DNA from: a virus
Virus record (IMG/VR): IMGVR_UViG_3300042341_001047
Strand: one strand, 5' to 3'
Length of the DNA stretch: 64,000 bases
Position 1 is the first letter of the stretch; every line of letters begins with the position of its first letter. The notes below the pieces were generated by a model. The model was not told where the DNA came from, ran no database searches, and saw only the letters and a program-made list of their open reading frames with translations. The translations under genes were made by a program, and so were the position numbers. This document shows positions 52,894 to 64,000 of the stretch, piece after piece.

Positions 52894-53527
52894 AAACTAC
52901 AATGAATATATAAATCAAAATGTTCTTTACATATTTGATTTTGACGACACGCTTGTTAATACACCAAGCTACGAGGAACTCGCTATCCAATTTTTAAAAG
53001 AAGACGTAACAATAAAAGATTTATTAAATCAATCGGTTAATAGAATAGGCGTTACATTAAATGATCTAAAGTGGCAAGACGGAAGAATCTATGTAATGGA
53101 TATCAATAAACAACTAAAAGAATTTGGCAACTGGGTAAGAAAAGGTGACAGAATGTATATGTTGTCTCCAAATTTATTTCACACATCTGATATAAGTTTA
53201 CCAAGTACATTAAAAAGTCTTTCTAAGTTATACAAATCAGTTGATAATAAATGTATAGTAACAGCTAGAGAGGAATCCATAAGAGATAAAATAACAAATA
53301 AATTATTAGAACTTGGACTAGAAATTCCTAAATATGGTTTACATATGGCACCAGTTGGTACTAAAAATGCAGGACATTGGAAAGGTGAGAAGATAGTTGA
53401 AATACTAAAAGAAACAGGATTCCAAAAAGCTATCTTCTATGATGATAATTCTAAATATATTAGAAAAGCAACTAAAGTAGTAAGAGAAAAGATGCCAAAT
53501 ATACAATTTGAACCAGTTAAGGTTTAA
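52880..53527 (+). CDS. HAD phosphatase (Swiss-Army-Knife RNA-repair HAD-like) with CTS-like N-terminus
   Basis: FDFDDTLVNTP, IVTAR, K, FYDD; MTKIKNYNEYIN. Confidence 0.7.
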   Translation: MTKIKNYNEYINQNVLYIFDFDDTLVNTPSYEELAIQFLKEDVTIKDLLNQSVNRIGVTLNDLKWQDGRIYVMDINKQLKEFGNWVRKGDRMYMLSPNLFHTSDISLPSTLKSLSKLYKSVDNKCIVTAREESIRDKITNKLLELGLEIPKYGLHMAPVGTKNAGHWKGEKIVEILKETGFQKAIFYDDNSKYIRKATKVVREKMPNIQFEPVKV

Positions 53528-60570: not shown

Positions 60571-62208
60571 ATGAAACTAAAGAATTATAATGATTTTACA
60601 AATAAATCAAAAAACACAAATGAAGGTAATTCATCTAATTATATGGCTAAATATAGTTTATCTGAATTTAGAAATATGATATCTGATAGTATACTTGAAA
60701 AAGATGAGTTTATAAAAGAAGAAAAAATTAATAGAATTCACGCATCATATGAATTAGAAATGTTATACGAGTCTAAATCTCATTGGGAAAAAACACCAGG
60801 TTCTATTTATCATGTAGATTTTGGTGATCATATTTTCTTAGTTAAGAATTCTGAGGGTTTTATAATAGAGAAAAAAACATTTGAACTTACTAATAGTGGT
60901 GAGTTAGAAAACTCAGAAATTCTTGAAGAGTGGGGTTGGAGAGATCTTGTTCCTGACTTTATTGAAAAAAGAATTGATAAGGTTTCTGAAGGTGGTAAAA
61001 AAGTTTTAGAATGGGTTAAAAAGGCTAAGGCAGCTATTAAAGAGTTTGTTCATCATAATCATAAAGCAATAAGTATAATTTTAAGTATTCTAACTGCTGT
61101 ATTTGGTATCGCTGGTATAGTTGCTCCTGGTTTAAGTGTATTAGGTGGTATTTGTATGATGTTAAATGGTACTTTACACATTTCACACGGATGGAGTGAT
61201 TTCAAAAAAGGAAAAGAAGTACTTGGTAAAGTATCACTTAAAGAATCTGGTAAAGCACTTTCATCTGGAATCATTAGTGGATTACCTGGTTTACTTTCAG
61301 GTAGTTTAATGATGTGTATTGGACTTAATGATGTTTGGCATGGAGGTACTACAGCAATGACTCCAGCCGGAGCAGCTGCTGCGGTTCACTCTGAAGCAAC
61401 TAAAAAAGGAGCTATGGCGACAGTAGAAAAAGTAGTTACTGGGGTAGGAGCTACAATAGAACATACAGTCGAAGCAGGAATTGAATGGTTTGCAGAGAAT
61501 GTTGTTCCAAATGCTGTGAAATTTGCAGGTGAAACTTTATTACCAGAAGCAGCAAAAGGTTTAGCTGCTGGAGCACTTGGTATAGGTTCAATATACTTAC
61601 ATGTTGCACTTAAAAAAATAATCGGATGGATTTATGATGCTATTCTAAAATCAATAGATGTAGTTGTATCAACACTTGATGGTGTTTCAAAAATACCTGG
61701 TAAAATAAGTGATTCGATATCTAAATTTACTGAGAGTGCTAAAGGTTTTGTATCAAAATTAGTTAGTAAAGGATTAAATAAATTAATTAAACCTATAACA
61801 GATTGTATAGCTGGATTCGTAGAAAAGTATATTACTCCAATCCTTAACGGAGTTAAAGGATTTGTTGCTGGTCAACAAATGGCTGTTAAAATTCTACAAG
61901 AAATGGAAAAAAGTAAACCGGAAACTGCACAAAAGATAGAAGGTATGCAAATCCAAGCAGTTCCTAAATCTGATCAAAAAATGTTCCCCAATACAGAACC
62001 TGTTAATATTAGCGATGAAGATAAAAATCAAATAGAAGAAATCGCAGAAGAAGGTGAAGAAAAAAATGGAGGAGGAGAAGGTGATACAAAAAAAGAAGTG
62101 AATAAAGAGGAACAAGCTACACAACCCGAACAACCGGCTAAAGAAAAAGAATCTGTAGCTGAAAGTAAGAAATATCTTATTAAAGAATTTAATAAATTTA
62201 AATATTAA
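60571..62208 (+). CDS. Large membrane/hydrophobic protein with CTS-like motifs at both ends
   Basis: MKLKNYNDF ... ESKKYLIKEFNKFKY; multiple Gly/Ala-rich hydrophobic helices. Confidence 0.6.
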   Translation: MKLKNYNDFTNKSKNTNEGNSSNYMAKYSLSEFRNMISDSILEKDEFIKEEKINRIHASYELEMLYESKSHWEKTPGSIYHVDFGDHIFLVKNSEGFIIEKKTFELTNSGELENSEILEEWGWRDLVPDFIEKRIDKVSEGGKKVLEWVKKAKAAIKEFVHHNHKAISIILSILTAVFGIAGIVAPGLSVLGGICMMLNGTLHISHGWSDFKKGKEVLGKVSLKESGKALSSGIISGLPGLLSGSLMMCIGLNDVWHGGTTAMTPAGAAAAVHSEATKKGAMATVEKVVTGVGATIEHTVEAGIEWFAENVVPNAVKFAGETLLPEAAKGLAAGALGIGSIYLHVALKKIIGWIYDAILKSIDVVVSTLDGVSKIPGKISDSISKFTESAKGFVSKLVSKGLNKLIKPITDCIAGFVEKYITPILNGVKGFVAGQQMAVKILQEMEKSKPETAQKIEGMQIQAVPKSDQKMFPNTEPVNISDEDKNQIEEIAEEGEEKNGGGEGDTKKEVNKEEQATQPEQPAKEKESVAESKKYLIKEFNKFKY

Positions 62209-62209
62209 T

Positions 62210-62782
62210 ATGAAACACTTAAAAACATTTGAATCGTTTTCAATCAATGAAACAATGGATATGATGACACTACCAGTTGATCCTATTCCAGGATCAGTAG
62301 ATGTCTATAGTGAAGTATTCAAATCAATTGGTTATAAAATTAATGATATAGTTAATCCATTAAAAAGAGTAGCACTTCCAGATGTTGTTAAAATTAAAGG
62401 TTTCATGATTAAAACATTTGGAACTACCTCTCCAGAATTGTCAAAAGAAAATGTTGAAAAACTAAATAAAGTTCTTGGATTAGATTATATTAATGAAAGT
62501 TCTTTTCAAGAAAATGAAAACTTAGCTATTAAATTGTGTGGTAGAATTAAACAATTATTAGGTGTTAATATTTATGCCAGTGCTGGTATTCCTTTGGCTA
62601 CGGTTTTAGGATTAATATCTGGTTCAGTATTTATAGGATTTGTTACATTTTTAGCCGGATGGGCATTACTTTGGATTTTTTCAAAAATTATGCAAATCTT
62701 TGGATACGGAGATATGGACACTAATATTAGTGGTATTGGAACTTATGATCCAGATAATGACATCAGAAGAAGAGAGAACTAA
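62210..62782 (+). CDS. Membrane-hairpin protein, PVDPI paralog family
   Basis: MKHLKTFESFSINETMDMMTLPVDPIPG; aligns along its length with 15064..15828. Confidence 0.7.
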   Translation: MKHLKTFESFSINETMDMMTLPVDPIPGSVDVYSEVFKSIGYKINDIVNPLKRVALPDVVKIKGFMIKTFGTTSPELSKENVEKLNKVLGLDYINESSFQENENLAIKLCGRIKQLLGVNIYASAGIPLATVLGLISGSVFIGFVTFLAGWALLWIFSKIMQIFGYGDMDTNISGIGTYDPDNDIRRREN

Positions 62783-62796
62783 TAGAAAAGGTAATT

Positions 62797-63153
62797 TTAA
62801 TCATTACAAGTTTTCTTTACCCATTTAACAAGTATATCTCCGTGACAAGATTTACCACCACCTCCTAAATTTTTACACCAACACCCAAGAACTTTATCTT
62901 TTAATTCATGTAAGTCATTCATTAATTCTTCATTAGAAAGTAAATACTCTTCATAAGCATCTACGATTTTTTTTCTCGTAGTTCCCTCTGGAAAAGTATC
63001 ACGCAATTCTTTAGGGTAAGACCACTTATTGTATTTACCATTTGGTAACCGACCAATATAAATGTCAAAAGGTTCTTTCTTAAAATGAACTACTCTTACT
63101 TTATGGTCATATTTAGGCTTACCTTTAAAACTATCAAAAAAATCATCACTCAT
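62797..63153 (-). CDS. DUF4326 family protein
   Basis: VVH..K..DIYIGR...W, LHELKDKVLGCWC...CHGDIL. Confidence 0.85.
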   Translation of the reverse strand: MSDDFFDSFKGKPKYDHKVRVVHFKKEPFDIYIGRLPNGKYNKWSYPKELRDTFPEGTTRKKIVDAYEEYLLSNEELMNDLHELKDKVLGCWCKNLGGGGKSCHGDILVKWVKKTCND

Positions 63154-63229
63154 ATTGGTAGATTTACTTTACTCAATAATTGATTTGAAACGTGTGTATA
63201 TATCTCAGTTATAAATAATAAAACTAAAA

Positions 63230-63382
63230 TTATGAATTGTTTAATTCGTTCAGTCTTATTTTCGCTGTTTCATAAGTATTCCACCTTTCATAAAATGATT
63301 CAAATAATCCAAACCATCTTACATATATCATGTGATAAACTTCACCACACATCAATTCTTGTTTAATAAAGTATTTTTTCAT
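63230..63382 (-). CDS. Small hypothetical protein inside inverted repeats
   Basis: Start re-assigned to MKKYFIKQ; flanked by IR arms 63208-63233 and 63388-63414. Confidence 0.55.
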   Translation of the reverse strand: MKKYFIKQELMCGEVYHMIYVRWFGLFESFYERWNTYETAKIRLNELNNS

Positions 63383-63409
63383 ATTGTATAATTTTAGTTT
63401 TACATATTT

Positions 63410-63457
63410 ATAACAAAGTGTAAAAAACATTAAAACGATTTTTTACACTCAACCGTT
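63410..63457 (+). repeat. attC-like hairpin repeat, copy 1
   Basis: ATAAC-AAAGTGTAAAAAA...TTTTTTACACT-CAACC-GTT; 47/48 identical to 63948-63995. Confidence 0.75.
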
Positions 63458-63519
63458 GTTTTGGAAGAAGAGTGATTTTTATATCTTAACTTTTCTTCAA
63501 ATATTTTAAGAATTTTCAT
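63430..63519 (-). pseudogene. Possible N-terminal stub of an integron-type tyrosine recombinase
   Basis: MKILKIFEEKLRYKNHSSSKT resembles the LR.+NYS..T start of integrase N-terminal SAM-like domains; cut by the attC-like repeat. Confidence 0.35.
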
Positions 63520-63620
63520 ATAGAATCATATATAAAATAAGTGATTTAGTTTAATTATAGATATATAATAGTTATGTTTAATTGTTCGTTCCTCACAACT
63601 ACACTTCGTTAAACATAACA

Positions 63621-63830
63621 TCAGATAAACGAAATAAAATTAAAAATCAGCGATATTGCTAATACAATCACTATTCCAACTATCCATTTTCGTGCAAGAA
63701 AAAATCCTTGTACAAAACCATTTGAATATCCACTCGTATATGAATGTTTATCAATGTTTAGTTTTTTGTAATCAACCTTATCGTGTTTATTTAATTTTTG
63801 TAAAAGTATTTTTTTAAGTATTCGTTCCAT
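63621..63830 (-). CDS. Small membrane-anchored protein inside inverted repeats
   Basis: C-terminal hydrophobic helix; flanked by IR arms 63615-63646 and 63834-63869. Confidence 0.55.
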   Translation of the reverse strand: MERILKKILLQKLNKHDKVDYKKLNIDKHSYTSGYSNGFVQGFFLARKWIVGIVIVLAISLIFNFISFI

Positions 63831-63947
63831 ATTTTTTTAATTTTACATTCGTTTATCTGTAACCGTTATGTATAATAAAAACTTAATTATGAGTTTCTAT
63901 TTTACAAAAATATTTATCCAAGTGAATAATTAAGTTTTTACTAATAC

Positions 63948-63995
63948 ATAACAAAGTGTAAAAAACATTAAAACGATTTTTTACACTCAATCGTT
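63948..63995 (+). repeat. attC-like hairpin repeat, copy 2
   Basis: ACATAAC...GTTAGTG boundaries with internal AGTGTAAAAAA/TTTTTTACACT stem. Confidence 0.75.
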
Positions 63996-64000
63996 AGTGA

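Follow-up and report, generated by a model that had tools for sequence, protein, structure and literature searches.

A probable inactivated integron-like cassette platform in giant phages of probable Bacteroidota hosts

In integrons, cassette open reading frames (ORFs) lie on the top strand of attC and are transcribed away from intI from the Pc promoter, and an insert specific to IntI reads the extrahelical bases of the folded attC sites. Folded single-stranded DNA (ssDNA) can also be used by an Xer enzyme, as in CTX-phi, where an ssDNA hairpin mimics dif, and in the pdif modules of Acinetobacter plasmids genes are bracketed by inverted recombination sites. For phages, CALIN (clusters of attC sites lacking an integrase) have been reported from virulent representatives, including Polaribacter phage P12002L (Qi et al., 2023; PMC9892861); the site P12002L_attC1, predicted by HattCI only and treated as an ordinary attC, was the single one of six such sites for which no junction made by IntI1 was verified (PMC9892861). 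The shuffling associated with the PeSLs (promoter-early stem-loops) of T4-type phages has been ascribed to homologous recombination between terminator/promoter motifs, with no dedicated recombinase (PMC2839356; PMC4122927). No description of a system that combines a short recombinase with hairpins was found in the published literature.

The window analyzed here is a stretch of 64,000 nucleotides from the IMG/VR virus record IMGVR_UViG_3300042341_001047, which comprises 175,660 bp with a G+C content of 27–31%. We infer, with a probability of about 0.75, that positions 63150–64000 of the window, together with adjoining DNA past its end, constitute an inactivated integron-like cassette platform of freshwater giant phages with probable Bacteroidota hosts. 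The array extends to ~64266 and is bounded by a 156-aa gene (64291–64761, past the window end) and a DUF4326 gene (62797–63153), and every credible ORF there is encoded by the minus strand. At 19 single bases the window departs from the stored genome record (20822, 49075, 53198–53251, and 62019–62979), none of them in 63000–64000 and one of them altering a DUF4326 residue (T/P), and it seems to derive from a near-identical variant of that record. The region has no match in Rfam, and for eight related loci the sole hit, to Flavo-1, was unrelated and sub-threshold; Pfam and PHROGs yielded no family for the 50-, 65-, and 69-aa cassette proteins, apart from a sub-threshold SLATT_5 hit for the 69-aa protein.

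An earlier note on this DNA, made from its letters alone, had described a chain of inverted-repeat units with shared boundaries, two similar sites preceding them, and a 29-codon ORF; all of these are present, and the repeats are non-random. Paired arms occur at 63219–63233/63388–63402 (15 of 15 positions complementary), 63622–63646/63835–63859 (25 nt), and 63873–63890/63926–63943 (18 nt, 94%), and as the pair GTTATGTTTAA/TTAAACATAAC at 63571–63619. A 38-nt hairpin core is exactly duplicated at 63415–63452 and 63953–63990, a match that arose in none of 100 shuffles. Exact inverted repeats of at least 11 nt number about 10 in 860 nt at the array, compared with 0.64 per kb genome-wide (112 in the whole genome vs. 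55–80 in Markov shuffles). The hairpins are unlike the ordinary terminators of this phage, which have G+C-rich stems, 3–4-nt loops, and A/T runs alongside. The genome as a whole contains two loop-type hairpins, one or two long-loop sites, and one attI core, and no others. The two similar sites are copies of AATAAnTGATTT at 63175 and 63536, and the 29-codon ORF occupies 63430–63519 on the minus strand.

Read in the direction of the genes (minus strand; a caret marks a junction), the array begins with cassette 0, which enters the window with its 3′ end, ...CACTAAC (63993–64000), continues past the window to ~64266 (G000:C1:96057), and contains a long-loop hairpin site and a 65-aa ORF (64209–64012). 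Cassette 1 (63865–63992) consists of a loop-type hairpin (stems 63977–63987/63955–63965) followed by an 88-nt palindromic body without an ORF (63952–63865), which folds at −25.9 kcal/mol (z = −5.7); its boundaries read TAACC^GTTAT and CAATC^GTTAG. Cassette 2 (63571–63864) starts at TAAC^GGTTA and proceeds through a 25-nt stem (63859–63835), a 188-nt loop, the second arm (63646–63622), and AT-GTTAT; a membrane-anchored ORF of 69 aa (63830–63621) lies in the loop, and a palindromic body without an ORF follows (63619–63571). The ...ATAAC end of this last cassette joins TATTATATATC... in an attI-like region that also comprises the recombinase leader (63520–63570), ~50 nt before the recombinase ATG. 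The recombinase gene itself survives as a 5′ remnant or “stub” (63455–63519), in which the first 15 codons, MKILKIFEEKLRYKN, are fused to HSSSKTT, and as a 3′ remnant (63150–63207), which codes for EIYTHVSNQLLSKVNLPI and a stop that overlaps the ATG of the DUF4326 gene. Between them, inserted in the recombinase gene at CAAC^TGAG, is cassette 3 (63208–63454; 247 nt), with AAC at both ends. It carries a loop-type hairpin (stems 63439–63449/63417–63427; loop TCGTTTTAATG), then a TTT-GTTAT box, a leader, a 50-aa ORF (63382–63230), and a terminal inverted repeat ending in TATAAC.

Relatives of this region were retrieved via both flanking genes (the 156-aa and DUF4326 genes); these and other comparison loci are designated by L numbers. 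In L016, the interval between the flanking genes ends in an intact 265-aa gene, the stop codon of which overlaps the DUF4326 start codon and the first 15 codons of which match the stub of the window. The 265-aa protein matches Pfam Phage_integrase (5.6e-34) and Phage_int_SAM_4, and the catalytic R, K, HxxR, H, and Y are invariant across seven recombinase homologs. The 3′ remnant in the window is 95–96% identical to the end of the L016 gene, with tblastn identity of 100% over residues 247–265. The 29-codon stub, which had been proposed to derive from an integrase, therefore does descend from a Xer/IntI-superfamily tyrosine recombinase of 265 aa, as the L016 alignment, Pfam, and tblastn all indicate.

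Two lesions separate this remnant from a functional gene. Window positions 63594–63470 align to positions 1383–1508 of the L016 interval and 63475–63455 to 2178–2198, such that ~670 nt are gone between codon 15 and ...GHSSSKTT. The second lesion is the 247-nt insertion at 63208–63454, which falls between ...KTT and EIYTHV..., just before the codons for the catalytic tyrosine, and is missing from L016 at exactly that point; the stub, deletion, and insertion junctions could all be mapped to the base. What is left of the recombinase is its first 15 and ~25 C-terminal codons, separated by a cassette. A search of the genome of the window for an intact tyrosine recombinase, which the earlier note had proposed as a check, recovered only this split and deleted remnant and no second copy; intact genes occur in relatives. 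The target of cassette 3, CAAC^TGAGATATATAC inside the recombinase gene, resembles the attI core, and this is why two similar sites are seen in the window. Only that at 63536 belongs to an attI-like region. That at 63176 is the antisense of the C-terminal coding remnant of the recombinase, since the 3′ end of the gene survives at 63207–63150; it is an attI-like pseudo-site in coding sequence that a cassette has used.

In the relatives, the interval between the flanking genes varies from 7–10 nt (L007 and L014) up to 2620 nt (L021), with unrelated contents; it is a general insertion hotspot. In several relatives (L003, L006, L020, L021, and L004), the same interval is filled by other genes without hairpins, for example those encoding a ~110-aa two-helix membrane protein family (MKNYHDIKEEE...) and a ~137-aa protein (MxVIFTDIDGV...). 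In L016, the first element after the 156-aa gene is a second copy of the DUF4326 5′ end, 46 codons long (positions 54–194 of the interval, L016:3802–3942); after it come the cassettes, then the recombinase gene, and finally DUF4326 in full. This suggests that a partial duplication of the target either accompanied the arrival of the platform or was caused by it.

Further copies of the loop-type hairpin, which the earlier note had anticipated, were found by pattern scan in about 50 other viral contigs, and profile and motif searches revealed arrays of 2–6 hairpins in a single orientation. On the gene-sense strand (the minus strand of the window), the site reads nTAAC-GGTTGA-[stem]-ATCGTTTTAATGT-[stem′]-TTT-GTTAn. 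The hairpin structure is directly observed in the pattern of variation: 36 distinct stems are compensated while the loop and the TAAC/GTTA boxes remain constant, and in an alignment of 38 sites, 11 of the 12 pairs of the inner helix (helix 2) have changed on both sides, with 93% of cells paired. Covariation of this extent was reached in 0 of 500 shuffles, and controls in which the partner was slid gave 40–55% paired cells. The loop ATCGTTTTAATGT is invariant in all 38 sites. No conserved bulged bases were detected in the stem; the only asymmetry is in the spacer (6 vs. 3 nt). A bias between strands is likewise evident, with 28 G.T pairs on the sense strand and three on the antisense strand; therefore, one particular strand folds, as DNA or as RNA. 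The leaders that follow GTTAT are conserved.

A second, long-loop class of site keeps the TAAC^G...GTTA frame with a 20-bp stem, and its loop of 60–90 nt contains an AT-rich leader, an ATG, and about 20 conserved codons. Around 19 homologous copies, the stems of which covary, are present in recombinase loci, and one heads the 65-aa ORF past the window end. Sites of this class (e.g., 64135–64266; G000:C1:95926–96057) encode the N-terminal peptide MKDxKHIxxFNExxENLNISDV within the site itself, and homologs of the MKDxKHIxxFNE type occur in L037, L120, L129, L132, L137, and others, so that unrelated cassette proteins share a leader. It is similar to the MKxxKxFE leaders of other proteins in this genome (62210–62782, MKHLKTFESFSINE), and we take it to resemble the capsid-targeting sequences of T4 internal proteins. 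Cassette 2 represents a third site variant, in which the whole 69-aa ORF lies in the 188-nt loop. It is 87% identical to L137:7626–7946, directly upstream of an intact recombinase gene, with compensatory changes in the arms of the body and one change of G-C to G.T in the stem; the body also occurs in L092. A gene inside a hairpin loop, as had been claimed from the window alone, is thus retained in L137. In five loci (L127:7892–7952, L129:7905–7965, L146:260–320, L162, and L174), the stem is made of the boxes themselves (GTTATnnn-ATCGTTTTAATGT-nnnATAAC), a form that resembles an “empty” cassette body and often stands immediately before the attI core. The palindrome at 63571–63619 of the window has the same GTTATnnn...nnnATAAC frame with a different loop of 27 nt.

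Linkage of the hairpins to the recombinase, and their polarity relative to it, are apparent in 80 loci found by a search from the recombinase side (at least 54% identity). Thirty-nine of these loci contain 84 loop-type hairpins, every one of them upstream of the recombinase gene and on the same strand; none was found within ~8 kb downstream. The long-loop sites are also exclusively upstream (23 of 23), and some hairpins directly precede the recombinase gene itself (−66 to −87). At ~55 nt ahead of the recombinase ATG, 40 of the 68 distinct upstream regions match the core TAAC^TA(T/G)nATATATA under a strict pattern, and in most of the others it can be made out by eye, offset by one base; in the window it occupies 63574–63560 on the minus strand, and in L148/L149 it is the junction with a cassette. 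Viewed on the plus strand, the window thus has the divergent geometry that the earlier note had ascribed to it: a leftward integrase gene, attI, and cassettes each ending in ...AACC^GTT. The hairpins are more widespread than the recombinase: of 10 long hairpin-bearing viral records sampled, nine have no recombinase gene, and the estimated completeness of two of these is 100%.

The positions of the junctions, and the sharing of cassettes between phages, can be read from near-identical blocks. In L148, L149, and L160, blocks of 99.9–100% identity occur in differing order, and identity ends at TAAC^. A 960-nt cassette is joined to attI in two of these contigs (...GTGTATAAC^TATTTTATATAAAC), and the third contig has it three positions away, next to another hairpin (...GTGTATAAC^GTCCGATG...). 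Over 250 nt, cassette 3 of the window matches L129:1478–1727 with 99.6% identity, and the match extends no further than the cassette itself; the L129 copy belongs to an array in a different phage, of 180 kb, and an intact recombinase gene lies 6.5 kb downstream of it. Gain, loss, and reordering of cassettes in related phages, which the note had predicted for G^TT boundaries, therefore occur exactly at G^TT (equivalent to AAC^), with resolution limited to the shared AAC triplet. This triplet is all that is shared with three junction partners: attI (L148/L149), the pseudo-site in the recombinase gene of the window, and a non-hairpin flank (L160). The ends of each cassette are mutual inverted repeats (GTTAnnnnn.../...nnnnnTAAC) that covary, and so match what would be required of an R-box re-formed in an excised circle. 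Across loci, 44 distinct cassettes were delimited (median 596 nt), of which 38 have their main ORF in sense and none in antisense.

Among cultured phages, DNA similarity identified only the DUF4326 gene and a hairpin of P12002L; the nearest integrases of cultured phages (Polaribacter and Cellulophaga) are 36–37% identical to the recombinase. P12002L (L209, 29.2–31.3 kb) is a virulent phage available in culture; in it, each of two successive DNA methyltransferase genes is headed by a hairpin of the family, providing a concrete example of cassette cargo in the form of anti-restriction methylases. In bacteria, the site pattern was found in four genomes, all Bacteroidota, once in each and in ordinary intergenic DNA. 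The loop 13-mer occurs in 62 of 151 Flavobacteriaceae genomes; a reversed control also matches often, and a few genomes have 5–16 copies. On these grounds the hairpin was rejected as a universal Bacteroidota dif. Three Flavobacteriaceae genomes (L192, L193, and L198) share a conserved intergenic element of ~70 nt, CGCGGATATAAA-ATCGTTTTAATGT-TTTATATCCGACGTTAAACGAAGGTAGC..., with the invariant loop in a covarying stem, and no recombinase was found beside these bacterial elements. Homologs of the recombinase in the copy-rich bacterial genomes are longer (open frames of 372–404 aa), and no hairpins were found within 1.5 kb of them.

In a working copy of the platform, a series of cassettes in one orientation would terminate downstream in a 265-aa recombinase gene. 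Each cassette, on the gene-sense strand, is modeled as G, spacer, hairpin, TTT, and GTTA, followed by a left repeat, leader, small ORF, and a right repeat ending in TAAC, the two repeats being matched and specific to the cassette. With the sense strand folded, cutting and joining would take place in its 5′ arm, at AA(C)^, and the partner would be either another hairpin site or the attI-like core TAAC^TATnATATATA, which precedes the recombinase gene by ~55 nt. By analogy with the bottom strands of attC, the site most likely recombines as folded ssDNA, and a single strand exchange followed by replicative resolution may be envisaged. Catalysis by the recombinase, a substrate of ssDNA rather than RNA or a cruciform, and the exact bond cleaved are all inferred. 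In the window, the recombinase gene lost ~670 nt, and a cassette then entered the attI-like pseudo-site within the sequence coding for TEIYTH. Because the recombinase gene is deleted and split by a cassette, four cassettes are stranded without an enzyme in cis. The earlier proposal of a phage-borne cassette system is supported, since further repeat copies, boundary polymorphism, and the integrase stub are all present; its identification as an integron-type system holds insofar as this is an integron-like platform, but not an integron proper, and the copy in the window is dead. Several points weigh against the platform reading: no experiment shows the recombinase acting on the hairpins; the enzyme is without the insert by which IntI reads extrahelical bases; most of the long hairpin-bearing records sampled have no recombinase gene; IntI1 gave no verified junction with P12002L_attC1; the junctions resolve no further than the AAC triplet; the invariance of the loop is unexplained, given that the loop of attC is variable; and the wobble bias would be equally expected for an RNA element, with a hairpin 45–90 nt upstream of an ORF and a U-rich tract after it.

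The last of these points leads to the most serious rival, that the hairpins are regulatory elements like the PeSLs of T4-type phages, each acting as an RNA terminator, insulator, or protein-binding site combined with a promoter, with cassettes shuffled by homologous recombination between repeats of ~50 nt and the recombinase a mere frequent neighbor. Nearly every cassette ORF is indeed preceded by a hairpin at 45–90 nt, and the recombinase gene too sometimes has one directly before it; the wobble bias of the sense strand is compatible with RNA, the invariant loop suggests a sequence-specific binder, the leaders after GTTAT are conserved, the recombinase is missing from most hairpin-bearing records sampled, and there is precedent for such elements (PMC2839356; PMC4122927). 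However, several junctions (attI in L148/L149, the pseudo-site of the window, and the L160 flank) have just AAC in common with the partner DNA; in the 80 loci, no hairpin follows the recombinase gene; and the two ends of a cassette covary. A consensus scan of the region detected neither an excess of promoters (20 sites vs. 22.7 expected) nor any terminator-like element, but it carries little information, the promoter type of the host being unknown. We therefore regard a purely regulatory role as unlikely, while recognizing that the two roles are compatible, as attC sites influence expression too.

The remaining explanations fare worse. Were the units miniature transposons, with terminal inverted repeats GTTA...TAAC, an unidentified transposase, and a 3-bp AAC target duplication, then the inverted ends of 10–26 nt possessed by each unit, the AAC on both sides of the insertion in the recombinase gene, and the existence of units without an ORF (63865–63952 and 63571–63619) would all be accommodated. 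Such elements are nevertheless very improbable and were rejected: no transposase is linked, the units are always head-to-tail in one orientation in polar arrays ending at the tyrosine recombinase gene, the mobile blocks include a hairpin outside the inverted repeats, and dispersed copies are absent from the genome. Chance palindromes in AT-rich intergenic DNA could be entertained only on account of the low G+C content (27–29%) and the frequency of short AT-rich inverted repeats in shuffles. They are refuted by the absence of the 38-nt repeat from all 100 shuffles, by a local density of inverted repeats more than tenfold the genome average, and by the conservation and covariation of the elements in dozens of other contigs, leaving chance with next to no plausibility.

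Returning to the integron-like platform, a stronger formulation, to which we give roughly even odds, is that it is a functional analog of integrons in Bacteroidota phages, derived from or sister to Xer recombinases, in which a 265-aa enzyme lacking the IntI extra domain recombines folded sense-strand hairpins at AA^C via the invariant loop. By this means, virulent giant phages would trade mini-genes that bear promoters, and some cassettes, judging by the MKDxKHIxxFNE leader, may be swappable proteins that are packaged and injected. If active, the system would have a direct bearing on the evolution of integrons from Xer recombinases, would mean that phages, including virulent giant phages, own a gene-capture machine, and would account for a published phage “attC” that was not recombined by IntI1. 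The copy in the window serves as a natural record of decay, in which the recombinase gene was deleted and then hit by its own cassette at an attI-like sequence encoding the catalytic-tyrosine motif.

Compared with described systems, the phage hairpins resemble PeSLs in being short conserved stem-loops that precede small accessory genes, within hyperplastic parts of large myovirus genomes, where they mark the boundaries of indels and replacements; they differ in having non-homologous junction partners and in forming polar arrays that end at a tyrosine recombinase gene. In P12002L, two sites of the hairpin family flank DNA methyltransferase genes, and the published primer for P12002L_attC1 corresponds to one of them (loop GTCGTTTTAATGC; CTAAC/GTTAG boxes); as in the window, no functional integrase adjoins. 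A CALIN is defined by at least two attC sites under the IntegronFinder/HattCI models with no integron integrase near them; two loop-type and two long-loop sites are present in the window. The P12002L study (PMC9892861) does not describe a cognate short recombinase, nor does it report the invariance of the loop, an attI core, or shuffling of cassettes. An Xer-like recombinase is shared with Xer modules, but there is no dif-like 11-6-11 core, the arms vary freely with compensation rather than conforming to the conserved 11-bp arms that surround a 6–8-bp spacer in the 28–30-bp dif core, and the enzyme is encoded by the phage rather than being the host XerCD; its scores for XerA (182 bits vs. a cut-off of 220) and XerC (152 vs. 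335) are below threshold.

Against integrons, one difference is in the enzyme. The 265-aa phage recombinase has 31 residues (176–206) where IntI4 (PDB 2a3v) has 79 (181–259), so that the insert, which in IntI lies between patches II and III, is missing from the profile alignment, and TIGR02249 (IntI) scores 150.8 bits, in two stretches, against a cut-off of 265. A short Xer-like enzyme that has no IntI insert makes the platform integron-like and not an integron. The main ORF of a phage cassette runs in the direction of the recombinase gene, on the folded (“bottom-like”) strand (38 of 44 cassettes), and the ORFs have their own leaders; the hairpin precedes each ORF instead of trailing it; the loop of 11–13 nt is invariant, whereas that of attC is variable; some sites have loops of 60–190 nt holding the start of an ORF or a whole one; the end-repeats of cassettes reach 10–26 nt; and the hosts are phage genomes. 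Thus, the IntI insert, a variable loop with extrahelical bases, top-strand ORFs, and, in the window, an intact recombinase beside the array are features of integrons that are not met.

The likenesses to classical integrons, such as the Vibrio chromosomal integron (VchIntIA, PDB 2a3v), extend to most other levels. In both, the enzyme is a Xer/IntI-superfamily tyrosine recombinase whose N-terminal domain is SAM-like, an attI-like site lies close to its gene, and insertion at secondary sites occurs. Head-to-tail cassettes of ~0.3–1 kb, mostly with one ORF, are common to both, as are imperfect hairpins with conserved AAC...GTT boxes, covarying variable stems, and strand-specific folding; the phage sites satisfy the attC-type definition of TAAC/GTTA boxes with conserved structure and variable sequence. 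The junctions are at G^TT (the R′ box), with insertion at the recombinase-proximal attI, and arrays without an integrase exist in both cases. In both, too, the recombinase is encoded on the folding strand and the junction is at AA(C)^ of the 5′ arm, which is the established geometry of the attC bottom strand and intI (PMC3458562). In the grammar of its sites, its strand bias, its insertion next to attI, and the dynamics of its cassettes, the phage platform thus matches integrons, but it does so with a minimal Xer-like enzyme.
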